From NCBI GenBank assembly GCA_020720785.1, contig DYOA01000012.1, positions 924 through 64,923 on the forward strand: a DNA stretch of 64,000 nucleotides, in the 5' to 3' direction. Position 1 is the stretch's first letter. Every line of letters starts with the position of its first letter. Made by a program: the position numbers and the translations under genes. Below are positions 331-46,443 of the stretch, in pieces. This DNA is from Leptospira biflexa (GTDB lineage Bacteria; Spirochaetota; Leptospiria; Turneriellales; DYLW01). The notes below the pieces were generated by a model. The model had not been told where the DNA came from. It was given only the letters and a program-made list of their open reading frames with translations, and did not search any database.

Positions 331-374
331 AATAAAGGAAAATTGTAAGAGAATATTATATGGAGGAATCAACG

Positions 375-2399
375 ATGACAAGACAGGAAGCGGAAAACCG
401 TCTCCGGGGGACATTCAATCTTCCGGTTTTTTATGATAATCAATGGGATGCAATTCAGAGAATATTAAATAAGGAGAGGGTGCTGTTGATTGAGAAAACT
501 GGTTTTGGCAAATCCCTGTGTTATCAGTTTCCAGCCACTGTTTTCAGTGGAACCACTGTGATTTTTTCTCCTTTGCTTTCTCTAATGAGAGATCAGGTAA
601 AAAAAATGACCGCATTGGGAATTTCTGCTGCCTGTATCAACAGCGAACAGTTACCGGAAGAAAATCAAAGAATAATGGCAGACGCTGTTTCAGGGAATGT
701 AAAGATATTGTATATTGCTCCGGAACGAATGGAAAACCATGATTGGATCAATATTTCCCGCCAGATCAGTATTTCTATGGTGGTTGTGGATGAAGCTCAT
801 TGCATTTCCGTATGGGGACATGATTTCCGGCCCGCATTCCGAAGAATCATTGATCTTATTAAATTCCTTCCCGCAGATGTTCCGGTGCTGGCCACAACAG
901 CCACCGCAACGAAAAGAGTGGAAAAAGATATTGCGAACCAGATTGGTGGAGGAATTCAGATAATTCGTGGACATTTGATGCGTGAGAATTTAAAGTTATT
1001 TGTTCTTAACGTTGAGAATGACGATGAGAAATTTATATGGCTGGGAAAGGTAATTCCCCGTTTGCCCGGTAATGGAATTATCTACACCGGAACCAGGGCG
1101 GATACAGAAATTTATTCCCATTGGCTGGAAGATTGTGGGATTTCTTCGGTACATTACAGCTCCAAACGAAATTCTGAATCCAGGGTCAGGATAGAAAACG
1201 GTTTTATGGAGAATAAATGGAAGTGTATTGTGGCAACAAACGCCTTGGGCATGGGAATTGACAAAAAGGATATCCGCTTTATAATTCACACACAGATTCC
1301 CCAATCTCCCATCCATTATTATCAGGAAATTGGGCGGGCTGGAAGAGACGGGGGAAACGCCTATATTATCCTTCTTTATCGTCCGGGGGATAAACGCCTG
1401 CCATTGAGTTTTATCCATACGGCCAAGCCATCCATAAAGGATTACCAGAAAGTAACAGATGCGATAAAGGATGGATTATTGGGAGAAAAAGAAATAACAA
1501 TGCAAAGCGATCTTAAAAAAACGACAATAAGAACTATTCTTGCAGATTTGATGGATGCAGGCATTATCCGCAAAATTCCTGTGGGTAGAAGTTCAAAATA
1601 TGAGTTTATTCCTGGTTCCAAGTCTCTTGATACATCACACTTTGCTGAACTTAAAAAAGTTAAATTAAAGGAATTGGATGACATGGTCAGCTATGTGAAA
1701 ACCACAGAGTCCAGAATGAAGTATTTAACGGATTATCTGGGGGATAGCCAGAATAAAAGTTTCGCCAACTGTGATAACACAGGAGAAAAAAAGATGAGAG
1801 TGGTCACCACACCGGAATGGAGACAAAAACTGGATAAATTCCAGGGGAGTAATTTCCCAATTCTGGAAGTGAAGGCACGGAGATCTCATCTGGTTTCTGG
1901 TATAGCCGGATCTTACTATGGGGTGACGGATGTGGGCAAGGTTATCCATAAATGTAAATACCAAAACGGAGGAGACTTCCCGGATTCTCTTGTAGCATTG
2001 ACAGTGAATGCATATCAGGAAAAACTAAAATCAGAAAATTTTGATCTTATCCTTTACGTACCATCGACAGTATCCGGGGATCTTGTGAAAAACTTCGCGG
2101 AGAAGGTCGCAGACCGCATTCATCTGCCCGTATCACACAAGCTTAAAAAGACAAGAAACACAAGCGAGCAGAAGATATTTATTACCAATTTTCTGAAATC
2201 AAATAATGTGAAAGACGCGTTTACAGTCAGTGACCCATCGGAAGTGGAAGGCAAAAGCATTTTACTGATTGACGATATATTTGACAGTGGAGCAACCATA
2301 AAGGAAATTGCTGCGATGCTCACAAAAATGGGAGCCACAAAGATTGCCCCTTTGGTTATCGCAAAAACGGTGGGAGGAGATCTGGCAGATGATACATGA
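375..2399 (+). CDS. recQ: RecQ-family ATP-dependent DNA helicase fused to a C-terminal ComF-like phosphoribosyltransferase domain
   Basis: Walker A KTGFGKSLCYQ, VVDEAHCISVWGHDFRP, ATNALGMGIDK and YYQEIGRAGRDG motifs. The C-terminal LLIDDIFDSGAT is a PRPP-binding loop. Start set at ATG 375 (GGAGG at 362-366); the ORF track opens at 360. Confidence 0.93.
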   Translation: MTRQEAENRLRGTFNLPVFYDNQWDAIQRILNKERVLLIEKTGFGKSLCYQFPATVFSGTTVIFSPLLSLMRDQVKKMTALGISAACINSEQLPEENQRIMADAVSGNVKILYIAPERMENHDWINISRQISISMVVVDEAHCISVWGHDFRPAFRRIIDLIKFLPADVPVLATTATATKRVEKDIANQIGGGIQIIRGHLMRENLKLFVLNVENDDEKFIWLGKVIPRLPGNGIIYTGTRADTEIYSHWLEDCGISSVHYSSKRNSESRVRIENGFMENKWKCIVATNALGMGIDKKDIRFIIHTQIPQSPIHYYQEIGRAGRDGGNAYIILLYRPGDKRLPLSFIHTAKPSIKDYQKVTDAIKDGLLGEKEITMQSDLKKTTIRTILADLMDAGIIRKIPVGRSSKYEFIPGSKSLDTSHFAELKKVKLKELDDMVSYVKTTESRMKYLTDYLGDSQNKSFANCDNTGEKKMRVVTTPEWRQKLDKFQGSNFPILEVKARRSHLVSGIAGSYYGVTDVGKVIHKCKYQNGGDFPDSLVALTVNAYQEKLKSENFDLILYVPSTVSGDLVKNFAEKVADRIHLPVSHKLKKTRNTSEQKIFITNFLKSNNVKDAFTVSDPSEVEGKSILLIDDIFDSGATIKEIAAMLTKMGATKIAPLVIAKTVGGDLADDT

Positions 2400-3336
2400 A
2401 GAAGCGGCATACTGGATCACCTTATCCCATATTCCCTCTTGGAAATATTCCAGGGTAAACAATGTCGTTACAAAGTTTCACCATCAAGCTGGAATTTCCA
2501 TTAAGGATTTTTTTCAATTGGCGGAAAGTGACTGGAGACTGGAGTATGATTTCTCGGAAAAAGAGATTGCGGATTTACAGGCAGCCAAAGGCCAATTGGC
2601 GGGGAATGCTTTCCTGGCTGAATCCCTTTTTAACCAGGGCATGGAAATAATACCAATAATAGATTCTTTGTATCCCAAAAGTCTCAAAGAAAACCTAAAA
2701 ATGTCCAGTGCCCCCCCGGTTTTGTATGCCAAAGCAAATCTGGAAATGCTGAAAGAAAAATCCATTGCCATAGTGGGTTCCCGGGAAGCGGACGCGATCT
2801 CCCTGGAATTTACGGATTCAGTCGCAAAAAAGGCAAGCAACGACTACAAGGTTGTTGTGAGTGGATTTGCGAAAGGGGTGGACCGGCGGGCGTTGGATGC
2901 CGCCATCAAAAACAATGGTCAGAGTATTATTGTGCTTCCGCAGGGAATCAACACGTTTGGTTCCGGATTCAAGAGTTATTACCGGCAGATACAGGATGGA
3001 ACTGTTCTGGTGGTGAGTACATTTCATCCTAATGTTCCGTGGAAAGTGGAGCTGGCCATGGCCAGGAATGCGATCATCTATGGGCTTGCGGATGAAATTT
3101 ATGTGGCCCAATCGTCCGAAAAAGGCGGTACCTTGTCCGGGGTGATCCAGGGATTGAAGGCAAACCGGAGAATATTTATCCGCAAACCGGATCCGGGTGA
3201 AATAAATGCCAATGAAATTCTCATACAGAAAGGAGGTGTTCCTGTGGACAGAAATGGGGTGGAGATAGCTGTGGAGAATCCAGAAAAAAAGGGACAAAAA
3301 ACATCCGGAGTGCAGCTGGAGCTTAACCTGGAGTGA
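2389..3336 (+). CDS. dprA: DprA/Smf (SLOG superfamily) DNA-processing protein
   Basis: YP..L...PPVLY, IAIVGSR, VVSGFAKGVD and AMARNAIIYGLA motifs. ATG 2389 follows GGAGG at 2373-2377 and overlaps the recQ stop (2397-2399). Confidence 0.88.
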   Translation: MIHEEAAYWITLSHIPSWKYSRVNNVVTKFHHQAGISIKDFFQLAESDWRLEYDFSEKEIADLQAAKGQLAGNAFLAESLFNQGMEIIPIIDSLYPKSLKENLKMSSAPPVLYAKANLEMLKEKSIAIVGSREADAISLEFTDSVAKKASNDYKVVVSGFAKGVDRRALDAAIKNNGQSIIVLPQGINTFGSGFKSYYRQIQDGTVLVVSTFHPNVPWKVELAMARNAIIYGLADEIYVAQSSEKGGTLSGVIQGLKANRRIFIRKPDPGEINANEILIQKGGVPVDRNGVEIAVENPEKKGQKTSGVQLELNLE

Positions 3337-3461
3337 TCCCGAATCCTTTTATGACCGTTTTCCTGATGCTATTCCGGGATGGAAAAAACTGACGGGAGTT
3401 TATTTTCTTACCGTGAAACGATAATGTCTTGACGGTCTCATCCGGAAAATAAATTTCATAT

Positions 3462-4253
3462 ATGGTAAAGACCGAATCCATGGAAGAAGCAATCCGGAAA
3501 AAGAAAAAAGAAAGGGGATATGCGTTTATCCCGTATCTGGCGATGGATGATCCGGATATGGATAAGACCCTGGAAATTGCGGATTTATATATTAAGCGGG
3601 GAGCGGCGTCCATTGAGCTGGGTCTTCCCTTTACGGATCCCGTGGCCGATGGCGTCATTTTGCAAAGAGCCTTCCGGAGGATTTTAAAAAAACCTTTCAA
3701 AATCTCCCGCGTATTGACCACGCTACGGAAGCTTTCTGCGGCCCATCCGGGTTTCCCCTTCATTGTCATGGGGTACGCAAATATATTTTACCAGTACGGG
3801 ATGGAGAAAATCTCCCTGGATATGGAACGTGCCGGGGTGCGGGCTCTGGTGGTTCCGGATCTTCCTTTTGAAGAAAAGTTGCGGAATCCTCAGATTGCAG
3901 ACTCATCCATTCCCTGGGTTAATTTTATCACATTATCCAGTTCGCCGGAAAGAATCCGTACCGTGGTGGAGAAAAGCCATGGATTTATTTATCTTGTTTC
4001 CGTGAAGGGGATTACCGGAACCACAGAGCCGGACTTCCGGGAAGTGGAGCCTCTGGCACGGCAGATTAAAGCGGTGAAAGACATTCCGGTGATTATTGGT
4101 TTTGGCATAAAGAGTAAAAAACAGATAGCGGAGATTCTCCGCTTTTCCGACGGATTCATCATCGGCTCCCGGTTTCATGAAATTATTGAAAAAATTCCGG
4201 ATAAGGATATTCTGCCGGCACTGTCCAGGGAGCTGGACCTCATTCTCTTATAA
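3462..4253 (+). CDS. trpA: Tryptophan synthase alpha subunit
   Basis: FIPYL, IELGLPFTDPVADGVILQ (catalytic Glu/Asp), GFIYLVSVKGITG, IGFGI and DGFIIGS motifs. Confidence 0.93.
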   Translation: MVKTESMEEAIRKKKKERGYAFIPYLAMDDPDMDKTLEIADLYIKRGAASIELGLPFTDPVADGVILQRAFRRILKKPFKISRVLTTLRKLSAAHPGFPFIVMGYANIFYQYGMEKISLDMERAGVRALVVPDLPFEEKLRNPQIADSSIPWVNFITLSSSPERIRTVVEKSHGFIYLVSVKGITGTTEPDFREVEPLARQIKAVKDIPVIIGFGIKSKKQIAEILRFSDGFIIGSRFHEIIEKIPDKDILPALSRELDLILL

Positions 4254-4263
4254 AGCAGGAGTT

Positions 4264-4575
4264 ATGGAAAATAAAGAAAAAGAAATATCACGCACAATTC
4301 TCGCAGCCACCCAGAAACCGGTGGTGGGGGAGGCGGGTTTGACCTCCGCCTGGAGGACAGAAAAACCGGTTATCAATCATGAAGCCTGCATTGTTGTCCG
4401 CAAAAATAAGGAAGTATGCCATTTCTGCTGGATGTACTGTCCGGAAGCCACCATAAAAAAAACCATACCCGTGGAAATTGATTATGATTACTGCAAGGGT
4501 TGCGGTATCTGTGCCTATGAGTGCCCCCATAATGCCATCCTCATGGTGGATGAGTCCAGGGAGATTTCCCCATGA
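4264..4575 (+). CDS. porD: 2-oxoacid:ferredoxin oxidoreductase delta subunit (2x[4Fe-4S])
   Basis: WRTEKPVI, C...CHFCWMYCP and IDYDYCKGCGICAYECP motifs. ATG 4264 follows GGAG. Overlaps porA by 4 nt (4572-4575). Confidence 0.88.
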   Translation: MENKEKEISRTILAATQKPVVGEAGLTSAWRTEKPVINHEACIVVRKNKEVCHFCWMYCPEATIKKTIPVEIDYDYCKGCGICAYECPHNAILMVDESREISP

Positions 4576-5825
4576 GCAAGCCGGAAAAACTGGTGATCAC
4601 CGGTAACCATGCCGCCGCTTATGCTGCGAAAAGTGCGGATGTGGATGTGGTGGCGGCGTATCCCATCACGCCGCAAAGTCCGGTGGTGGAGAAAATCTCT
4701 TTATTTGTGGAAAGCGGCCAGATGCCCCGCACCCGGTATATCACCGTGGAAAGCGAACAGTCTGCCATCGCGGCGGTGATTTCGGCCTCCGCCACGGGTT
4801 CCCGGGTATTTACCGCAACCAGTGCCAATGGCCTCGCGTACATGTTTGAGCAGTTGAACTGGGCGGCGGGAAACCGGCTTCCCATCGTCATCTGTGTGGC
4901 CACTCGTGCTCTGGGTGCTCCCTGGAGTGTGTGGTCGGATAACCAGGACGCGTTTTCCGTCCGGGATTCCGGTTTTATGCAGATGTATGCGGAGGACAAC
5001 CAGGAAATATATGACACGGTTCTCATGGCGTATAAAATCGCGGAGGATAAACGCGTGTATCTCCCCATTCTGGTGAACTATGATGGTTTCATTTTATCCC
5101 ATACCCTCATGCCGGTATCCATTGAGCCGGAGGAAAAAATCCGGCGTTTCCTTCCGGATTATGTGCCGCATATCCATCTGACCGATTTTGATCATCCACA
5201 GGGGGTATCCCCCGTGACCACTCCGGACCCGATAGCGAGGGCAGGGGAAAAAACGGCTCCGGGTTATTTTGAGTACCGTTATTCCATGCAGAAGGCTCTG
5301 GAAAATTCCCTGGATGTGATCCGGGAAACCGGGGAGACCTTCCGGGAAATTTTCCATCGGTCGTATGGAAACGGAATTTATAAGGAATACCGCACGCAGG
5401 ATGCCGAATTGTTTCTCTTTGCGGTGGGCAGTCTGGCCTCGGAGAGCCGCAATGTGGTGGATTCCCTTCGCGAACAAGGGATTCCGGCCGGGTTAATTTC
5501 TCTGAAGGTATTCCGTCCTTTTCCCGTGCAGGAAATGCGGGAAGCATTCCATAATGCCAAACTCATCGTGGTGTTTGATCGGAATATTGGTTATGGATAT
5601 GAAGGGATCCTCGCCTATGAATTGAAGGCCGCACTGTATGGAAAGGAAAATCCGCCTTTGATAAAGGGGTTCATCGCCGGGCTGGGCGGAAGGGATGTAA
5701 CGGAAAATATCATGACGGAGGGCGTGCTCAAGACCAGGGACGCTTTCCAGAGTGGGTCCACCGCCCAGATGGATTTACCCCGGACAGATTATCTGGGTCT
5801 TTTTCTGGACAAACTGGAGTTATAA
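4572..5825 (+). CDS. porA: Pyruvate/2-oxoacid:ferredoxin oxidoreductase alpha subunit
   Basis: GNHAAA, AAYPITPQS, VESEQSA, RVFTATSANGL and AGLGGRD motifs. Confidence 0.93.
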   Translation: MSKPEKLVITGNHAAAYAAKSADVDVVAAYPITPQSPVVEKISLFVESGQMPRTRYITVESEQSAIAAVISASATGSRVFTATSANGLAYMFEQLNWAAGNRLPIVICVATRALGAPWSVWSDNQDAFSVRDSGFMQMYAEDNQEIYDTVLMAYKIAEDKRVYLPILVNYDGFILSHTLMPVSIEPEEKIRRFLPDYVPHIHLTDFDHPQGVSPVTTPDPIARAGEKTAPGYFEYRYSMQKALENSLDVIRETGETFREIFHRSYGNGIYKEYRTQDAELFLFAVGSLASESRNVVDSLREQGIPAGLISLKVFRPFPVQEMREAFHNAKLIVVFDRNIGYGYEGILAYELKAALYGKENPPLIKGFIAGLGGRDVTENIMTEGVLKTRDAFQSGSTAQMDLPRTDYLGLFLDKLEL

Positions 5826-5827
5826 AA

Positions 5828-6757
5828 ATGGGTATTAAACTGAATGAAATTCCTTTAAAAGAATATGTCCTGCCGGGGACCCGGCTCTGTTCCGGTTGCG
5901 GGCTCCAGCTTGCGTACCGGATGGCTCTGAAAGCTCTGGGAGACCGTACCATCGTCACCATCCCGGCATCCTGTTCCACGGTGATGCATGGAATGCAGGG
6001 TTTCAGTGCGGTGAATATTTCTGTTCTGCATACCACGTTTGAGACCACGGCGGCGTCCGCCTCCGGCATCGCTGCTTCCCTGAAAGCACGGGGGATTGAG
6101 GATGTGAATGTGGTGGCCTGGGCGGGCGATGGCGGAACGGCGGACATCGGTATCCAGGGATTGAGCGGTGCGGCGGAGCGTCAGGACGATTTTATTTATG
6201 TATGTTATGATAATGAATCCTATATGAATACCGGGACGCAGAGATCCGGAGCCACTCCCAAAGGGGCCATGACCACCACCACGCCGGTCGCGGGAAAAAC
6301 CCAGTGGAAAAAGGATGTGGTAAAAATCATGGAAGCCCACCAATTATCCTATATTGCCACCGCCAACGCGTCGTATCCGCAGGATCTGATGGATAAAATC
6401 CAGAAGGCAAAAGAATTCCGTGGGCAGGGGGTTCGTTATATCCATATTTTCAGTCCCTGTCCTCCGGGTTGGGGCTATAAAACCGAAGAAACCATTGAGA
6501 TGGGCCGGCTGGCCAACCAGACGGGATTGTGGCCGCTCTTTGAAAAAATCCATGGAAAACTGAGTATCAGCCCCGCGTCCGCCCGGTATATGCAGAAGGA
6601 AAACCGGAGAGATCTGCGGGAATATCTGGGAAAACAGGAACGATTTTCCCAGATTAAAGAAGAACAAATTGTTGCATGGGAAAAGCACATTGATTATACC
6701 TGGAAAAAAATGGAGCTGGAATTGACGATGCAGGAAGAGTTGGGAAGCTATGTCTGA
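5828..6757 (+). CDS. porB: Pyruvate/2-oxoacid:ferredoxin oxidoreductase beta subunit (TPP-binding)
   Basis: LCSGCG, PASC, AGDGGTADIGIQGLSG...YDNESYMNTG (TPP motif) and SPCP motifs. Confidence 0.93.
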   Translation: MGIKLNEIPLKEYVLPGTRLCSGCGLQLAYRMALKALGDRTIVTIPASCSTVMHGMQGFSAVNISVLHTTFETTAASASGIAASLKARGIEDVNVVAWAGDGGTADIGIQGLSGAAERQDDFIYVCYDNESYMNTGTQRSGATPKGAMTTTTPVAGKTQWKKDVVKIMEAHQLSYIATANASYPQDLMDKIQKAKEFRGQGVRYIHIFSPCPPGWGYKTEETIEMGRLANQTGLWPLFEKIHGKLSISPASARYMQKENRRDLREYLGKQERFSQIKEEQIVAWEKHIDYTWKKMELELTMQEELGSYV

Positions 6758-8321
6758 ATTTTCTATGCCGGAAACCCGCTTGGTGGGGAAGAATATCCGG
6801 ACAGTCCGGGAACATAAAAAACTGGAGATATCCCAGGTTTCTGCCCGGTCTTCCATTCCGGAAGAGGAGTTAAACCAGATTGAAAATGGTCTCCGGGATC
6901 CGTCCATCTCCGAACTGTTAAAAATTGCCACTACTCTGGATACATCCATCGGCATTCTGGTAATGGGAAAAGAAGCGGAAAACCTGAAAAAAATGGTGGT
7001 ACGTTCCCAGGAGAGAATTCCGGTCACTTTTGGGAAAACCGGAAAGAAAACCCGCTATGAAAGTCTGTCAGCGGATGAGGGGAACCGCCACATGGAGCCT
7101 TTTTTGGTGGAAATTTTTCCGGAAAAAGATCCAGCCTGGAGTTCCTATCCGGGGGAGGAATTTCATTACGTGCTTTCCGGGGACATCATATTGCATCTGG
7201 ACAATGAGAAACTGGAGCTGAAAGCTGGGGACGCTGTTTATTTTGATTCCTCCGTTCCGCATCGAATGCAATCCAGAGAAAATACGGCAAAAATAATCTC
7301 CGTCGTGTATCGTGCTCCCCGGAAAAATTTTACCGCAAAGCCCATGTTCCGCAGCCGTAAAATGGATAATATCATACAAGCCGCCCGATTGATCAAGAAT
7401 ACCAGTATGGGGATGGTCTGTCCGGATGTTTCCTCCATGGTGGCCATAAACCGTGCCCTGGAGGAAGGGATTCTGGAAAAAGCCTATTTTATTGGCTGCC
7501 GGGATACCATCCACCGAATGGTGAAACGCACCATAAACAATGTAAATCGGGTGGAGATTGTGGATGATTATCCGGCGGAGAATCTGGAGATGGAACATAT
7601 AAACGCCGCGGATTATGGAGTGCGTCTGGTGAAAGAAGGGAAAATCCAGATGCTCATGAAAGGAAATATCAATACCGCCACCTTCAGCCGCCCGGTCACC
7701 CACCCCCGGTATGGGATTGGGAATGGAAGAAGGCTTTCTCTGGTGTGTACGTTTGATCTTCCCAATGTGGACCGCCTGATATTTCTCACGGATCCGGGGG
7801 TTAATCCATCCCTTCTGCGGCATGAGAAGCCGGAAAGTGCACGGGATATTATTGAAAATGCGGTGTTTGCCGCACGGGCAATGGGGGTCTCCTATCCCAA
7901 AGTGGCCATTCTGGACGCCAATGAAGTTCCCTCCACCAATGTTCCGTCCACGCTGATGGCCCGGAAAATTGCTGCCATGCCCATTGAAAATGCGGTGGTG
8001 GAAGGCCCGCTGTCCTATGATCTTTCTCTTTATGAAGATGCCGTACGCAAAAAGCGGCTGAAAAATTCCGCAGTGGCGGGAAAAGCGGATATCCTGGTGG
8101 TTCCCCGCATAGAAGGCGGCAATTTTATTTATAAATCCTGGGTGATGACCTCCGGGGCGGAAGTGGCTAATATTGTCATTGGTGCAAGGGTTCCCATTAT
8201 TCTGACCTCCCGGAGTGATAACCAATCCACAAAATTTCTGAATATCTGTGCGGGAGTCCTGAACGCCCAATTAATCCACAAAGAAAATATTTCTAACGAA
8301 AAATCCGGTAGCGGAGCATAA
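6750..8321 (+). CDS. Fusion: XRE-family HTH + cupin + phosphate butyryl/acetyltransferase (PTA_PTB)
   Basis: N-terminal HTH (IRTVRE...LNQIENGLRDPSISELLKIA), cupin (MEPF...GEEFHYVLSG...GDAVYFDSSVPH), then PTB motifs (LMKG, TDPGVN, VEGPLSYD, GKADILVVP, GN, PIILTSRSD). Overlaps porB by 8 nt. Confidence 0.88.
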   Translation: MSEFSMPETRLVGKNIRTVREHKKLEISQVSARSSIPEEELNQIENGLRDPSISELLKIATTLDTSIGILVMGKEAENLKKMVVRSQERIPVTFGKTGKKTRYESLSADEGNRHMEPFLVEIFPEKDPAWSSYPGEEFHYVLSGDIILHLDNEKLELKAGDAVYFDSSVPHRMQSRENTAKIISVVYRAPRKNFTAKPMFRSRKMDNIIQAARLIKNTSMGMVCPDVSSMVAINRALEEGILEKAYFIGCRDTIHRMVKRTINNVNRVEIVDDYPAENLEMEHINAADYGVRLVKEGKIQMLMKGNINTATFSRPVTHPRYGIGNGRRLSLVCTFDLPNVDRLIFLTDPGVNPSLLRHEKPESARDIIENAVFAARAMGVSYPKVAILDANEVPSTNVPSTLMARKIAAMPIENAVVEGPLSYDLSLYEDAVRKKRLKNSAVAGKADILVVPRIEGGNFIYKSWVMTSGAEVANIVIGARVPIILTSRSDNQSTKFLNICAGVLNAQLIHKENISNEKSGSGA

Positions 8322-9237
8322 AATCGTCCACTTTTTCCATGTATTCCCCCGGATTCATATCAATAGAAAGCACATGCCGGGCACCCATTCTCGTGATGTA
8401 TATTTCTTTTTTGTCATGACGAATCGCCCGGTATATGGCTTCCGAATGGCCGGCAGGGATGAGGGCATCGTCCACAGAGTGGGTTAGGAATACAGGAATT
8501 TTTATCTTCGCCGCTTCCTTTTCCGGTGAGACATCCGCAATCCGGAACGATGCCCGGATATTAGCTATATGTTCCGCTCCAAAGAAGAGAATGGTCATCC
8601 AGTTTCCATAGCGGTGGGTTGCCTCCTGGGTAAGAATGGAATACAGGTCTTTGTACGGAGAATCTGCCATCACAAACGCCAGCTCTTCCGGATATTCGGC
8701 TGCCGTCATCAGGACAATGGCTCCTCCCATGGAGCTGCCCATCAGCCCGATTTGGGAGGCGGGAAGGCCGGTTTTCACCCGGAGCCAGTCAATGATCTGG
8801 GCAAGGTCTTTCCGTTCATGGTATCCATACGTACAGAATTTTCCTTCGCTGTGTCCATGGTAGCGGGCATCCGGCATGAGAAGGTGACAGTCATATCGTC
8901 GGAAAATCGGCGCGTATTTGAGCATCCCAAAATTCCGGGAGGTGTGTCCATGCTGGAGGATCACGGCACATCGGTTGCTCCGGGAGGGGAAATACCAGGC
9001 GGATATTTTCAGCGTTTTTCCGTTATGATCCGTCACTGGAATGATATGCTGTTCCGGGTTCTTCAGACCAGCCTGTTCCGGGGATTTGATTTTCCGCAAC
9101 TCCAGTTCTTTTTCCATGGAATTAATCTCAAAGGAAATAATAATATTGGAAAAATACCAGGCTGCTCCCATATAAATAATGACGGCAATGGGAACCCCCA
9201 GGAGGATTTTATATGTGCGGGTATAACGGAAGTACAT
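8293..9237 (-). CDS. Membrane-anchored alpha/beta hydrolase (YqkD-like)
   Basis: N-terminal TM, HGH, DARYHGHSEG, nucleophile elbow GSSMGG, TH..DD and ARH motifs. Confidence 0.85.
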   Translation of the reverse strand: MYFRYTRTYKILLGVPIAVIIYMGAAWYFSNIIISFEINSMEKELELRKIKSPEQAGLKNPEQHIIPVTDHNGKTLKISAWYFPSRSNRCAVILQHGHTSRNFGMLKYAPIFRRYDCHLLMPDARYHGHSEGKFCTYGYHERKDLAQIIDWLRVKTGLPASQIGLMGSSMGGAIVLMTAAEYPEELAFVMADSPYKDLYSILTQEATHRYGNWMTILFFGAEHIANIRASFRIADVSPEKEAAKIKIPVFLTHSVDDALIPAGHSEAIYRAIRHDKKEIYITRMGARHVLSIDMNPGEYMEKVDDFMLRYRIFR

Positions 9238-9240
9238 GGC

Positions 9241-9780
9241 CTAATAGTGAATCAGGGAAAATGCTTTGGTATGGGAATGCTTTTCCAGCTTCTTCCTCCC
9301 CTGCAAAAAATCCAGTTCAATCAGAAAATGTACGGAGACAACCTCCGCACCGGATTTCTGAACCAGTCGGATGCTGGCATCGGCTGTGCCACCGGTGGCC
9401 AGAAGATCATCAATAATGGCCACTTTATCCCCGGCTTCGTACGCATCCTGGTGAATTTCCAGAGAATCCGTCCCATATTCCAGAGCATAATCTTCTCTGT
9501 ATGTTTTATAGGGGAGCTTTCCCTTTTTTCGTATGGGTGTGAATCCCAGATTCAATTCATGGGCCACCACCGTACCCAATATAAACCCACGGGATTCAAT
9601 CCCCGCGATTCCGGTGACGTTTTTATCAATTGTGGATACAAACCATTCCACCATTGTTTTCAGTAATTGGGGGTTCTGGAGTACCGGGGTGATATCCTTA
9701 AACTGGATGCCGGGTTTGGGAAAATCCGAAACATTCCGGATGGCTTTTTCAATGATTTCACTGTATTTCTTCTCTGGCAT
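9241..9780 (-). CDS. apt: Adenine phosphoribosyltransferase
   Basis: DFPKPGIQFKDITP, GIESRGF, RKKGKLP, YALEYG and IDDLLATGGT motifs. Confidence 0.97.
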   Translation of the reverse strand: MPEKKYSEIIEKAIRNVSDFPKPGIQFKDITPVLQNPQLLKTMVEWFVSTIDKNVTGIAGIESRGFILGTVVAHELNLGFTPIRKKGKLPYKTYREDYALEYGTDSLEIHQDAYEAGDKVAIIDDLLATGGTADASIRLVQKSGAEVVSVHFLIELDFLQGRKKLEKHSHTKAFSLIHY

Positions 9781-42539: not shown

Positions 42540-43838
42540 ATGTTGGATAAAAAAATAGAAACCATTGAAATAGACGAATTACGACAAATGCAGTTGCAAC
42601 GGTTGCGTGCGACGGCAAGCCGGGCTTATGAAACAGTTCCCTTCTATAAGAAAAGCTTTGACCAGCATGGGGTGCATCCGGATATGTTGCACAGTCTGGA
42701 TGATCTTAGGAAATTTCCGTTCCTGCTAAAAAATGACATGCGGGAGGCGTATCCCTTTGGTCTATTCTCTGAGCCCATGGAAAACATTGTGCGTCTGCAT
42801 GCTTCATCCGGCACCACCGGTCATCCCACTGTGGTGGGATATACCAAAAACGATATTGATATTTGGGCGGAAGTCATGGCCAGAACCCTCAGTGCGGAAG
42901 GTGGCAATGAAAAAGATATTATTCAGGTGGCGTATGGTTATGGTCTTTTTACGGGAGGATTGGGTGCCCATTATGGGGCTGAACGTGCCGGAATGACCGT
43001 TGTTCCCACCAGCTCCGGAAATACAAAAAGGCAGTTAATGCTCATAAAAGATTTCAACGTGACTCTGCTGGCCTGTACCCCTTCCTATGCTTTGAATATG
43101 GTGGAGATCGCGGAGGAAATGGGGATCAACCTAAAAGAGCTGCCGCTGAGGGCGGGCTTTTTTGGTGCGGAACCCTGGTCGGATTCCATCCGGAAGGACA
43201 TTGAGGAAAGAATGGGCATTCTGGCTCTGGATATCTACGGCCTTTCCGAAATAATCGGGCCCGGTGTCAGTTTTGAATGTCCATCCAAAAACGGAATGCA
43301 CATCAATGAGGATCATTTTTATCCGGAAATTATTAACCCTGAGACCGGGGAAGTACTGCCGGACGGAGAGACCGGAGAACTGGTGCTTACCACCATTACC
43401 AAGGAAGCCTTTCCTGCATTCCGCTACCGCACCCGTGACATCACTCGCCTGAACAGGGAAAAATGCTCCTGTGGCAGAACTCTGGTTCGGATGGATAAAG
43501 TCACCGGCAGAACGGATGATATGCTCATCATACGGGGCGTTAATGTATTCCCCAGCCAGATTGAATCCGTGATTATGGAAATGGAAGAGGTGGAACCGCA
43601 CTACCAGATTTTAGTGGACAGAGACGGGGCTCTGGATATTCTGGAAGTCCAGGTGGAGGTGAGCCAGAAATTCTTTTCCGATGAAATCCGCAAACTGGAT
43701 GCCATTAAAGCAAAAATCGGCAAGGCAATTCTGGAGAATCTTTCCGTTTCCGCAAAAATCACCCTGGTGGAGCCCCGTACCATTGAAAGATCCATGGGGA
43801 AAGCCGTGCGGGTCATCGATAAAAGAACAAAAGCATAG
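42540..43838 (+). CDS. paaK: Phenylacetate-CoA ligase
   Basis: [32 protein letters not shown] and [20 protein letters not shown] motifs. Confidence 0.95.
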
Positions 43839-43846
43839 AGGCCAAC

Positions 43847-44281
43847 ATGATAATAAAACAGGTTTCCATTTTTATTGAAAATAAGGCAGGCCGACTCTCC
43901 GAAGTCAGCCGTATACTGGGTGATGCCGGGGTGAATATCCGCACATTATCTCTGGCGGATTCCTCTGATTATGGGGTTTTGCGGCTTATTGTGGATGATC
44001 CTCAGAAAGCGGTGGATGTCCTGAACGCCAGGGGAATTACTTCCAGCATGACCGATATGATTGCCCTGGAAGTGATGGACCAGCCGGGCGGACTGGCGGA
44101 TATTCTGGACAGGATAGCCTCTCTGGGATTGAATGTGGCCTATATGTACGCCTTTGTGGAAAAAGTGGACGGTAAGGCCGTGGTGGTTTTCCGCTTTGAG
44201 GATATGGAGAAAGCCAGCCAAAAAATATCCCAGGACAGTAAACTGACTTTCCTGATTGGGGAAAAAATACAAATACCATAA
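43847..44281 (+). CDS. Double ACT-domain protein (paaK/ior-associated)
   Basis: QVSIFIENKAGRL...GVNIRTLSLAD...GVLRLIV and D.PGGLA..L...NV.YMYAF motifs. Confidence 0.92.
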   Translation: MIIKQVSIFIENKAGRLSEVSRILGDAGVNIRTLSLADSSDYGVLRLIVDDPQKAVDVLNARGITSSMTDMIALEVMDQPGGLADILDRIASLGLNVAYMYAFVEKVDGKAVVVFRFEDMEKASQKISQDSKLTFLIGEKIQIP

Positions 44282-44291
44282 CGGAGCATTC

Positions 44292-45848
44292 ATGTCGCAT
44301 AAAGAAAAAGCACTCTTAACAGGAAATGAAGCAATCGCTCGGGGGGCATGGGAGGGCGGTTGCCAGGCGGCCACTGCGTATCCAGGGACTCCATCCACGG
44401 AAATTCTGGAAAACATATTGAAGTATCCGGATATCCACGCCCAATGGTCTGTGAATGAAAAAGTAGCTCTGGAAGTGGCGGCGGGAACTTCCTACAGCGG
44501 AGTCCGTACCTTGGTTTCTATGAAGCATGTGGGCGTCAATGTGGCTGCCGATCCGCTTTTTACCCTGGCCTATACGGGAGTGAAAGGTGGGCTGGTGCTC
44601 ATCAGTGCGGATGATCCGGGGATGCATTCCTCCCAGAATGAGCAGGATAACCGGCATTATGCCCGGTCAGCAAAAATTCCGATGCTGGAGCCATCGGACA
44701 GCCGGGAAGCCTTGGAATTCACCAAAATGGGATTTGGTATATCGGAAGAATTTGATATACCGGTACTGCTTCGTACCACCACCCGGATCAACCACACCCA
44801 GACGGTGGTGGAGCTGTCCCATCGGGAATCCAATCCCCATACAATAGAATTCGATAAAAACGATCCCAAATATGTGATGCTTCCTGCCTTTGCCATCGCC
44901 CGGAGGGTGTCCTTGGAAGAACGCCTGGGCAAATTGAAAGAATTTTCGGAAAACTTTGCCTATAATTTTGAAGAGATCCAGGAAACGGATATTGGAATCA
45001 TCACCTCCGGAATTTCCTATATGTATGCAATAGAAATTTTTCCGCAGAAATCCATTCTCAAGCTTTCCATGACTTGGCCATTGCCGGAAAAAAAAATCCG
45101 CTCTTTTGCACAGAAAGTGAAACGCCTCCTGGTTTTGGAAGAACTGGATCCCTTTCTGGAAAAAGAGATCCTTTCCATGGGGATTTCCGTGGAAGGGAAA
45201 AGCATTTTCCCGTCGATGGGTGAATTCACTGCAGAAATCATACGGAAATCCTTTTTCCCAACAGAAAAGAGTAAAAGTCCGGAGAAAGTGGTCTCCCGTC
45301 CTCCGGCATTCTGCCCCGGCTGTCCACATGAGCCTGTTTTCATTGTTCTGAGCGAAATGGGACTTCTCGTTATGGGGGACATTGGCTGCTATACCATGGG
45401 GGCTCTGGCTCCGTATAATGCCCTGAACGCCTGCCTGGATATGGGGGCTTCTGTGGGAATGGCCCAGGGGGTTTCCATTGCCCATCAAATTGCCGGGAAA
45501 AAAGAGCCGGTGGTTGCGGTGATTGGGGACAGCACCTTTATCCACTCCGGGATTACCGGACTCATCGATATGGTTTATAATAAACAGAATGCCCTTGTGA
45601 TCATTCTGGATAACCGGACCACAGCTATGACCGGAGCCCAGGAAAATCCCGGAACGGGCAAAATGGCAAATGGCGAGGAAACCTTCCGGGTGGATTTTGA
45701 GCAATTGGCCAGAGCCTGCGGTGTGGAAAGGGTTCATACAGTGAATCCATACAAGAAGGAAATACTGCGGGAAATTATATCCCGGGAAACGCAAACGGAT
45801 GGGGTTTCCGTGATTATCACGGATAAAAAATGCGTTTTAATAAAATAA
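44292..45848 (+). CDS. iorA: Indolepyruvate:ferredoxin oxidoreductase alpha subunit, lacking the C-terminal ferredoxin domain
   Basis: LTGNEAIARG, AYPGTPSTE, SMKHVG, DDPGMHSSQNEQD, RPPAFCPGCPH, GDIGCY and IGDSTF.HSG motifs. Ends ..CVLIK*. Confidence 0.92.
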   Translation: MSHKEKALLTGNEAIARGAWEGGCQAATAYPGTPSTEILENILKYPDIHAQWSVNEKVALEVAAGTSYSGVRTLVSMKHVGVNVAADPLFTLAYTGVKGGLVLISADDPGMHSSQNEQDNRHYARSAKIPMLEPSDSREALEFTKMGFGISEEFDIPVLLRTTTRINHTQTVVELSHRESNPHTIEFDKNDPKYVMLPAFAIARRVSLEERLGKLKEFSENFAYNFEEIQETDIGIITSGISYMYAIEIFPQKSILKLSMTWPLPEKKIRSFAQKVKRLLVLEELDPFLEKEILSMGISVEGKSIFPSMGEFTAEIIRKSFFPTEKSKSPEKVVSRPPAFCPGCPHEPVFIVLSEMGLLVMGDIGCYTMGALAPYNALNACLDMGASVGMAQGVSIAHQIAGKKEPVVAVIGDSTFIHSGITGLIDMVYNKQNALVIILDNRTTAMTGAQENPGTGKMANGEETFRVDFEQLARACGVERVHTVNPYKKEILREIISRETQTDGVSVIITDKKCVLIK

Positions 45849-45858
45849 AAGGTAGATT

Positions 45859-46443
45859 ATGCAGGCAATGAATTTTTTAATGGCAGGGGTGGGGGGTCAG
45901 GGTGTGATCCGCTTTTCCCAGATTCTGGGCGATGTGCTTTTCCATCTGGATTATGATGTAAAAAAAGCGGAAGTGCATGGGATGAGCCAGAGAGGAGGTG
46001 CTGTTAACTCACATCTCAAAGCGGCACCCCGGGTTTATTCCCCCATCATTGAAAATGGTACGGCAGATTTTCTCATTTCCATGGAGCTGCTGGAAACCTA
46101 CCGGAACCGGGATATCATATCGGAAAAAGGGATGGTGATTTCGTCCACGTATACTCTGGAAACAGCCCGGATGGCTGCAGGACTGGATGACTATCCATCG
46201 GATCTAACGGAAAAATTAAAAGAAATATTCCAGGACAGGATTATTCTGATTCCCACTCTGGAGATAGCCAAAGAGCTGGGAAATCTGCGCCTGCATAATA
46301 CCATTTTACTGGGAAAACTTGCCGCAAACATGGCTATTCCCAAGGATAAATGGCTGGCTTCCATAAAGAATATTTTTCCGGAAAAAGTGCATGAGTTAAA
46401 TGAAAAAGCATTTTCTGCCGGTTATCAATACCAGCCGGAATAA
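45859..46443 (+). CDS. iorB: Indolepyruvate:ferredoxin oxidoreductase beta subunit
   Basis: GVGGQG, AEVHGMSQRGGAV, N.ILLG and NEKAF motifs. Confidence 0.93.
   Translation: MQAMNFLMAGVGGQGVIRFSQILGDVLFHLDYDVKKAEVHGMSQRGGAVNSHLKAAPRVYSPIIENGTADFLISMELLETYRNRDIISEKGMVISSTYTLETARMAAGLDDYPSDLTEKLKEIFQDRIILIPTLEIAKELGNLRLHNTILLGKLAANMAIPKDKWLASIKNIFPEKVHELNEKAFSAGYQYQPE

Follow-up and report, generated by a model that had tools for sequence, protein, structure and literature searches.

Some pathway enzymes, PutA, BirA and NadR among them, carry a helix-turn-helix (HTH)-type domain in the same polypeptide and are called trigger enzymes. XRE-cupin proteins, in which an HTH_3 domain precedes a Cupin_2 domain, are local repressors of neighbouring metabolic genes (PMC7901475). 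The phosphate butyryltransferase (PTB) of C. acetobutylicum (CaPTB) has the conserved residues K186, D217, K228, N250, K254, S279, R280, S283 and E285, and its D282 is proposed to be catalytic (PMC9706017). The PTA-like domain of MaeB, in which the catalytic residues are absent, serves as an acetyl-CoA sensor (PMC7902834). We analysed a 64-kb stretch of DNA from Leptospira biflexa (64,000 nucleotides of contig DYOA01000012.1, assembly GCA_020720785.1; hereafter the window), where a single gene at 6750-8321 joins an XRE-type HTH and a cupin to a PTB-type phosphate acyltransferase. The reading that we favour, and hold tentatively, is that this fusion protein would be an active PTB-type phosphotransacylase serving the adjacent PorDAB oxidoreductase, modulated by a ligand- or metal-sensing and assembly module derived from a regulator.

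The gene and its parts are given here in window coordinates.

6750-8321, + strand: fusion gene encoding an XRE-type HTH, a cupin and a PTB-type phosphate acyltransferase; 523 aa, ATG start
6783-6965, + strand: XRE-type five-helix HTH domain (residues 12-72), from HTH_3 (E 3.9e-9) and the helices of the AlphaFold2 (AF2) model
7095-7313, + strand: cupin beta-barrel (residues 116-188), from Cupin_2 (E 4.8e-13) and conservation counts
7146-7148, + strand: Tyr133 codon; most relatives have His at position 133
7356-8270, + strand: complete PTB-type phosphate acyltransferase domain (residues 203-507), from NCBIfam models, the 7vg9 match and Foldseek
8205-8219, + strand: TSRSD motif (T486-D490), equivalent to CaPTB S279, R280 and the proposed catalytic D282

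The open reading frame (ORF) has no internal stop on the + strand. Performing the domain search suggested in a preliminary description of this DNA, we found all three Pfam domains above their gathering scores: HTH_3 at residues 16-68, Cupin_2 at residues 120-184 and PTA_PTB (PF01515) at residues 285-495 (E 1.7e-24, 87 bits against a cutoff of 24). The acyltransferase domain is complete because the NCBIfam PTB models align nearly full length, with residues 203-507 covering model positions 3-299 of 302. The translation shows LMKG at 302-305, GPLSYD at 419-424 and TSRSD at 486-490, so the uninterrupted 523-aa HTH/cupin/PTB frame with its LMKG, GPL.D and TSRSD motifs, as first described, holds. 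The same is true of the 8-nt overlap with porB (ATGTCTGA): the fusion ATG at 6750 lies within the end of porB, whose stop codon is at 6755-6757. The whole-chain AF2 model has a mean pLDDT of 80 and a pTM of 0.73, the latter a hint that the domains may be fixed relative to one another. In the HTH, AF2 places helices at residues 8-22, 27-34, 38-45, 53-62 and 67-72 with a pLDDT of about 90. Searching with Foldseek, we found no solved structure that spans the full chain; the best query-normalised TM-score was 0.51, for the PTB half only.

Coverage across the junction had also been proposed as a check on the fusion. Logan contigs from independent biofilm and soil metagenomes lie at 6784-8097 (run X2, one contig), 7147-8400 (X1) and 7147-8084 (X3), and contigs from all three runs cross the cupin-PTB junction (about 7314-7356) without an indel or a joint. 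Prior suspicion apart, the idea that assembly or gene calling merged two separate genes can draw on runs X1 and X3, whose contigs break at 7131-7147, the only breaks seen; a C/T polymorphism at 7131 marks the same place, which is inside the cupin and away from the junction. The same uninterrupted architecture recurs in at least 120 protein clusters and in 67 species genomes. Because contigs cross the junction and relatives conserve the architecture, we regard the fusion as genuine and an artefact as practically ruled out. Taken for itself, the C/T polymorphism at 7131 together with the breaks in two runs suggests strain heterogeneity at this place.

Comparing the acyltransferase half with solved structures, we find that CaPTB (PDB 7vg9) is the closest relative (E 5.9e-43). 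The other best relatives are the L. monocytogenes PTB-like enzyme (3U9E) and the E. faecalis branched-chain phosphotransacylase (1YCO), and identity to the solved PTBs is 28-35%. The target-normalised Foldseek TM-score of the AF2 model is 0.85-0.87 to 7vg9 and 0.81-0.87 across solved PTBs. In the alignment, CaPTB D217, K228, N250, K254, S279, R280 and D282 correspond to D424, K435, N458, K462, S487, R488 and D490 of the window protein, and all of these are invariant in 29 of 29 diverse fused members. Across these 29 members, conservation is highest in the C-terminal half of the PTB domain (mean pairwise identity 69%), followed by the cupin (51%) and the HTH (35%). The fusion thus has in common with Ptb (7VG9, 3U9E, 1YCO) the two-domain PTA_PTB fold, the Ser-Arg-x-Asp motif, the Asn/Lys and Asp/Lys residues and, in its relatives, pairing with Buk, the butyrate kinase. 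Unlike Ptb, it adds about 200 N-terminal residues (HTH plus cupin), and the window gene is linked to porDAB rather than to buk. The equivalent of CaPTB K186 is an Asn in the window protein (N397), and this position varies across the fused family. With a complete fold and invariant CaPTB residues, the PTB half looks catalytic.

An ATG at Met205 is invariant at 72 of 72 loci, and an internal start there would give a free PTB. A Shine-Dalgarno-like AAGGGG stands before Met205 just at those loci where Lys-Gly codons require these letters; the window has none (CGCAGCCGTAAAATG). The PTB models take in Met205, as their alignments start at residues 201-204; its role is thus probably structural, and an internal start is unlikely. 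C-terminal PTB-like domains behind an N-terminal module are also seen in PRK08190 (bifunctional enoyl-CoA hydratase/phosphate acetyltransferase) and in E. coli Pta, whose N-terminal region is regulatory. The PRK08190 model scores 201.7 bits over residues 190-508 of the fusion (cutoff 282), and the N-terminal partner in the fusion is an XRE-cupin module, not MaoC or DRTGG.

MaeB offers a precedent for another reading, raised in outline in the preliminary description, in which the fusion would be a one-component transcription factor and its PTB domain a non-catalytic sensor of acyl-CoA or CoA (PMC7902834). MaeB likewise joins a PTA_PTB-fold domain to another functional module, and MaeB PTA domains are among the structural matches of our AF2 model (E about 1e-13). 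In contrast to MaeB, the fused family keeps Ser-Arg-x-Asp and the other PTB residues invariant; its domain is PTB-type rather than PTA-type and lies C-terminal to a regulator-like module, not to an enzyme. The genomic contexts below bear on this reading from both sides.

The homology search returned at least 120 protein clusters, and we took the best 120, all of which are 490-523 aa long with Cupin_2 and PTA_PTB. A scan of species-representative genomes found 67 loci encoding the same HTH-cupin-PTB fusion. The family is spread over five phyla (Spirochaetota, Desulfurellales, Deferribacterota, Desulfobacterota and Acidobacteriota), with carriers in Desulfurellales including Hippea, Deferribacterales (Calditerrivibrio, Deferribacter), Geobacteraceae (Geomonas, Citrifermentans), Desulfobacterales (Desulfoluna), Acidobacteriota and many Spirochaetaceae. 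The nearest relative (94% identity) comes from a sulfidic-cave metagenome-assembled genome labelled Leptospira biflexa. Upstream sequence was sufficient at 62 species loci, and at 40 of them the fusion directly follows, on the same strand, a gene for a butyrate-kinase-like protein (about 355 aa, Pfam Acetate_kinase); this gene usually ends 2-34 nt before the aligned N-terminal region of the fusion. No second PTB was found by tblastn within flanks of about 8 kb at these Buk-adjacent loci; in such genomes, gene order makes the fusion the evident PTB counterpart of Buk. Four Desulfurellales loci (Hippea, Desulfurellaceae) have the order porA-porB-buk-fusion. The full Hippea operon consists of a stand-alone XRE-cupin gene (199 aa), porG, an NAD(P)/FAD iron-sulfur subunit, porA, porB, buk and the fusion. 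The Leptospira-like clade, made up of the window, L006 and the 68% relative L002, has porD-porA-porB-fusion. These arrangements fit a recurring module that would convert a 2-oxoacid first into acyl-CoA, then into acyl phosphate and finally into the acid with a gain of ATP, in line with the earlier statement that POR makes the acyl-CoA which PTB turns into acyl phosphate.

Two other contexts would suit a sensor. At 21 spirochaete loci, the fusion gene stands alone with neither a kinase nor an oxidoreductase nearby, and the L076 operon has a separate PTB and Buk beside the fusion. Set against these are the 40 loci at which the fusion is the sole PTB beside buk, and an HTH that is the least conserved part of the protein and mostly acidic; in a dedicated transcription factor one would expect the reverse. 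With the catalytic residues invariant and most relatives serving as the sole PTB partner of a Buk-like gene, we consider it quite unlikely that the PTB domain was repurposed as a sensor.

In the neighbour-joining tree and by identities, the Leptospira-like clade groups with the other fusions. As to whether the fusion arose independently in this clade, both the tree and the identities would agree with one fusion event without proving it. Some loci deviate at the N-terminus. In L062, L063, L066 and L070 (Desulfoluna, Desulfobacteraceae), the N-terminal tblastn match starts at query residue 41-70 after a gap of 200-700 nt behind buk, and the HTH there is very divergent or remodelled. In Geomonas (L027, L038, L068), 1-5 tandem copies of AACCAYTGACCG lie about 60-120 nt upstream of buk, and these copies, which derive from the 3′ terminus of the preceding gene, lengthen that terminus together with its stop codon. 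When the regions before buk were footprinted in 13 Geobacteraceae, the contexts differed by species, and nothing but these tandem AACCAYTGACCG copies was seen.

Databases name the relatives 'phosphate acyltransferase', 'phosphate butyryltransferase', 'cupin domain-containing protein' or 'HTH cro/C1-type domain-containing protein'. Searches of a full-text corpus of about 8.3 million for papers that combine cupin with PTB terms gave none, and the Geobacter papers found treat the ptb gene Gmet_2098 without mention of an HTH-cupin fusion. The fusion family is visible in databases yet uncharacterised. The earlier remark that no characterised protein with this architecture is known agrees with the literature search, whereas the rarity it implied does not agree with a large family in five phyla.

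The N-terminal module was traced by searching residues 1-200 against 1.8 billion cluster representatives, which gave 822 matches at E <= 1e-10. Most of the best 150 of these are stand-alone XRE-cupin proteins of 180-215 aa, as expected from the earlier remark that such proteins normally stand alone. Longer matches, so far as we checked them, have either the fusion to PTB or a tandem duplication of the XRE-cupin module, and none joins it to another enzyme. In Hippea and Syntrophales (L010 2092-9485; L079 1915-6328), stand-alone XRE-cupin genes that share the cupin signature of the fused family lead NAD(P)-linked oxidoreductase operons with porG, a Pyr_redox_2/Fer4_20 subunit, porA and porB, and the Syntrophales gene overlaps porG. 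Another stand-alone relative precedes an acyl-CoA synthetase and a glutamate mutase/methylaspartase cluster. Lying beside metabolic genes that they would control, these relatives match the published picture of local repressors (PMC7901475). The fusion resembles such repressors (E. coli PuuR, the Pseudomonas family, V. cholerae 1Y9Q) in the order and size of its HTH_3 and Cupin_2 domains. It differs in its length (523 aa, not about 180-215 aa), its C-terminal PTB enzyme, its mostly acidic HTHs from which conserved residues are gone, and the negative operator searches described below.

The cupin signature of the family is S131-x-H133-x3-E137-x6-G144 ... G160-D161 ... Y164-F-D-S167 ... H171, and the closest stand-alone relatives have it as HxGEE(F)...G...GD..YFDS...H. 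We take its His-x3-Glu...His to be the cupin 2-His-1-Glu metal-site arrangement, in which Ser replaces the first motif-1 His. H133, G135, E136, E137, F138, G144, G160, D161, Y164, D166, S167 and H171 are consensus in at least 95% of 120 fused proteins, and the same 12 positions are consensus in 73-100% of 112 stand-alone relatives. Because the signature is conserved in fused and stand-alone proteins alike, sequence comparison indicates that the cupin pocket is ancestral and under constraint.

Comparison of this module with known proteins gives more than one kind of match. The N-terminal module matches the PuuR repressor model (E 4.6e-11), and 1y9q, the V. cholerae HTH_3 regulator, aligns over fusion residues 13-184. 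In Foldseek, the N-terminal model (pLDDT 81) matches HppE, HEPD and MPnS best (E 5e-15 to 1e-10), on par with 1y9q. These three are enzymes that share the HTH-like plus cupin architecture, so this architecture alone would be no proof of a transcription factor. They open a further reading, in which the cupin would be an HppE/HEPD-type metal-dependent enzyme or a EutQ-like acyl kinase and the protein a fusion of two enzymes. The structural match over residues 1-200, with its HTH-like alpha domain and cupin, would fit this, as would the His-x3-Glu...His of the family (H133, E137, H171), the weak Cupin_3 (EutQ-like) matches and the lack of an adjacent kinase in the Leptospira-like clade and many spirochaetes. 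On the other side, the same signature is found in the closest stand-alone XRE-cupin relatives, the regulator 1y9q matches equally well, and HppE shows about 21% identity to the module at a root-mean-square deviation of about 7 Å. HppE, HEPD and MPnS are non-haem iron enzymes acting on phosphonates; the window protein has Tyr133 in place of the first His, and most fused relatives already have Buk. The Cupin_3 match reaches 20 bits against a gathering score of 23.5, and we rejected a EutQ-like acyl-kinase cupin on this ground. A catalytic cupin of any of these kinds is in our view very unlikely.

The genes around the fusion in the window are as follows.

3462-4253, + strand: trpA, tryptophan synthase alpha (Trp_syntA E 4.9e-62, TIGR00262 over cutoff)
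4264-4575, + strand: porD-like delta subunit, 103 aa, with ferredoxin-type 4Fe-4S motifs (TIGR02179 84.8 bits, cutoff 60)
4572-5825, + strand: porA/vorA-like alpha subunit, 417 aa (POR_N E 3e-65, PFOR_II E 1.6e-25)
5828-6757, + strand: porB/vorB-like beta subunit, 309 aa, thiamine pyrophosphate (TPP)-binding (TPP_enzyme_C E 1.2e-19)
8293-9237, - strand: convergent alpha/beta-hydrolase gene, whose 3′ end overlaps the 3′ end of the fusion by 29 nt

The porD-like gene belongs to a por/vor-type 2-oxoacid:ferredoxin oxidoreductase. We set its start at 4264, behind an AGGAG ribosome-binding site at 4257-4261, and rejected a longer ORF from 4177. It begins 10 nt past the trpA stop, and trpA and porD may be co-transcribed. 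The trpA-por adjacency is common to the window and L006 (94% identical), and L002 lacks it. The NCBIfam PorA and VorA models both match the porA product, each under its cutoff, and the porB product also stays under the cutoffs (NF008818 390 bits against 405; NF008819 354 against 405). The convergent alpha/beta-hydrolase gene marks the end of the + strand transcription unit. Four-subunit por/vor enzymes normally require a gamma subunit for CoA binding. No gamma subunit gene (PF01558) lies beside porDAB in the window, L002 or L006. The sole PF01558 ORF of the window is iorB (45859-46443), 38 kb away, and we rejected it as the missing gamma subunit since it belongs to a separate paaK-ACT-iorA-iorB cluster. 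That cluster (42540-46443, +) is a second 2-oxoacid oxidoreductase locus and a typical arylpyruvate/indolepyruvate module, with a phenylacetate-CoA-ligase-like AMP-binding protein (432 aa), an ACT-pair protein (144 aa), an iorA-like gene (530 aa) and iorB (194 aa). Neither tblastn nor a hidden Markov model built from 43 Buk sequences (best E-value 4.1) found a Buk- or Ack-like ORF in the 64-kb window, which extends the earlier observation that no butyrate or acetate kinase is adjacent. Farther upstream, the gene at 360-2399 (+) encodes a 679-aa RecQ/DEAD-type helicase whose C-terminal domain (residues 579-666) is phosphoribosyltransferase-like. It lies directly before dprA (2308-3336, +), and its product resembles a ComFA/ComFC-like competence pair fused into one protein beside DprA.

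We compared the HTH (residues 12-72) of the 120 fused proteins with that of the 112 closest stand-alone relatives. The mean net charge is -2.75 in the fused and +2.25 in the stand-alone proteins (Mann-Whitney p = 7e-22), and among the fused ones it is <= -2 in 62% and >= +1 in 10%. Positions that are near-fixed in the stand-alone proteins (R/K33, S/T37, S42 and, in part, E45 and G47) are replaced in most fusions. The spirochaete HTHs are extreme, such as PQFIEQIEEHEYEAP, with charges down to -10. Because the HTH is the least conserved part, mostly acidic, and has lost the stand-alone positions, the evidence is that DNA binding would not be the conserved role of the N-terminal module in the fused family.

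Putting these data together, we propose the following mechanism for the preferred reading, that of a modulated phosphotransacylase. The PorDAB-type 2-oxoacid:ferredoxin oxidoreductase would make acyl-CoA, the PTB domain of the fusion would turn it into acyl phosphate and regenerate CoA, and a kinase encoded elsewhere would then make ATP. The N-terminal 200 residues would descend from an XRE-cupin local regulator of the type now found leading related oxidoreductase operons. The module would mainly sense a ligand or metal through the cupin pocket, aid assembly and tune the enzyme, and DNA binding would be an ancestral property, apparently lost by most fused members. The domain architecture and how widely it is conserved, the intact catalytic motifs and the partners in the operon are observed directly; the enzymatic activity, the acyl substrate, the cupin ligand and the action of the N-terminal module on the enzyme are what we infer here from sequence and context.

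Several observations weigh against this proposal. The window protein misses all curated PTB equivalog cutoffs, with about half the cutoff scores (TIGR02706 206/410, NF005837 191/409, TIGR02709 118/475 bits), and for this reason it belongs to a distinct PTB subfamily whose acyl substrate could differ. The L076 operon (3812-9560) has the order iorA-iorB-ptb(298 aa)-buk-fusion(519 aa), so that a stand-alone PTB lies beside the fusion. The window protein alone has Tyr at position 133, a near-universal His that 119 of the 120 fused and 109 of the 112 stand-alone proteins keep, and its ligand or metal binding may be altered; L006 keeps His133, and the window codon is covered by the X2 and X3 metagenome contigs. 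The HTH fold is kept in all 120 fused cluster representatives examined, which implies that the module does something. In the window protein, the HTH keeps R33, Q43, E45-N46-G47-x3-P51-S52 along with the significant HTH_3 match, so that this protein may still bind DNA. Finally, where spirochaetes have the fusion as a monocistronic gene, conserved inverted repeats stand between its -10 box and its ribosome-binding site, in keeping with possible autoregulation; they could equally be hairpins of the 5′ untranslated region or sites of another factor. These repeats lie at about 7935-7970 in L056 and about 3640-3675 in L059, both with 12-bp arms, and also upstream of the L021, L026, L039 and L043 genes. 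They are group-specific and stand just downstream of a TATAAT-like -10 box, examples being ATAACTGATCAC-N9-GTGATCAGTTAT and CTAATT-N4-AATTAG with compensating changes. A conserved block, TTCACGATATCAAATATAGTTTAATTTAC, is found upstream of the -35 box of the spirochaete monocistronic fusion genes. At L076, a divergent AsnC/Lrp regulator accompanies the operon, and the stand-alone PTB next to the fusion bears on whether the latter is redundant, differently specific or regulatory.

The retained HTH motif and the spirochaete repeats also speak for the trigger enzyme put forward in the preliminary description. Here, one polypeptide would act as a phosphotransacylase and also bind DNA to repress its own trpA/por operon, and occupancy of the cupin by its ligand or of the PTB by its substrate would free the protein from DNA. 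The positions kept by the window HTH are those typical of stand-alone XRE-cupin proteins, whose range of charge also takes in its value of -1. Stand-alone relatives lead related oxidoreductase operons, and XRE-cupin proteins are known to repress neighbouring metabolic genes locally (PMC7901475). The counter-evidence comes from the HTH itself and from the DNA. Helix 3, the recognition helix, begins with Glu-Glu-Glu (PEEELNQ; the region of this helix reads IPEEELNQIENG), and this region varies even inside the Leptospira-like clade (EEE, DKN, KKE). Most fused relatives have a strongly acidic HTH, as shown above. Scanning for inverted repeats, we found none upstream of trpA (3300-3500) or porD (4150-4300) in the window, nor any in the corresponding regions of L006; L002 has a single weak palindrome (71% complementary) upstream of porD. 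No palindrome is common to the window, L002, L006 and the upstream regions of the stand-alone relatives, and a promoter and terminator scan stayed at chance level. The canonical look of the window HTH therefore supports the trigger-enzyme idea, whereas the acidic HTHs of the family and the scans upstream of trpA/porD, which found no palindromic operator, do not. We judge such an enzyme possible for this particular protein, and only somewhat less probable than the modulated phosphotransacylase. Its more specific form, in which the protein works with a gamma-less PorDAB, its canonical HTH represses trpA-por until a metabolite at the cupin or the PTB cleft releases it, and this is the ancestral state of the family, appears somewhat unlikely. 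PutA, BirA and NadR would be analogues insofar as they combine an enzyme with an HTH-type domain; the domain types and the pathway differ, and DNA binding coupled to catalysis is putative in the fusion.

Phosphotransacylases set the balance of acyl-CoA, free CoA and acyl phosphate, and acyl phosphates are ATP precursors as well as global signalling and acylating agents. A fusion family spread over five phyla points to an undescribed layer of control in short- or branched-chain acyl-CoA fermentation or assimilation in anaerobes, and the groups concerned include Geobacteraceae, Deferribacteres, Desulfurellales and spirochaetes. If the trigger-enzyme reading is true, transcription would respond directly to the flux of acyl-CoA/CoA or acyl phosphate. 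If that state is ancestral, later members of the family would have dropped DNA binding and retained an allosteric role for the module. Should DNA binding persist, trigger enzymes would gain a new class. The biochemistry follows an ordinary logic, and the interest lies in how a regulator was domesticated and in the trigger-enzyme question. For domestication, the family offers a natural series in which a transcription factor becomes part of an enzyme: regulators that stand alone at the head of operons come first, fusions whose HTH is canonical, as in the window, are intermediate, and fusions with an acidic HTH that probably no longer binds DNA come last.

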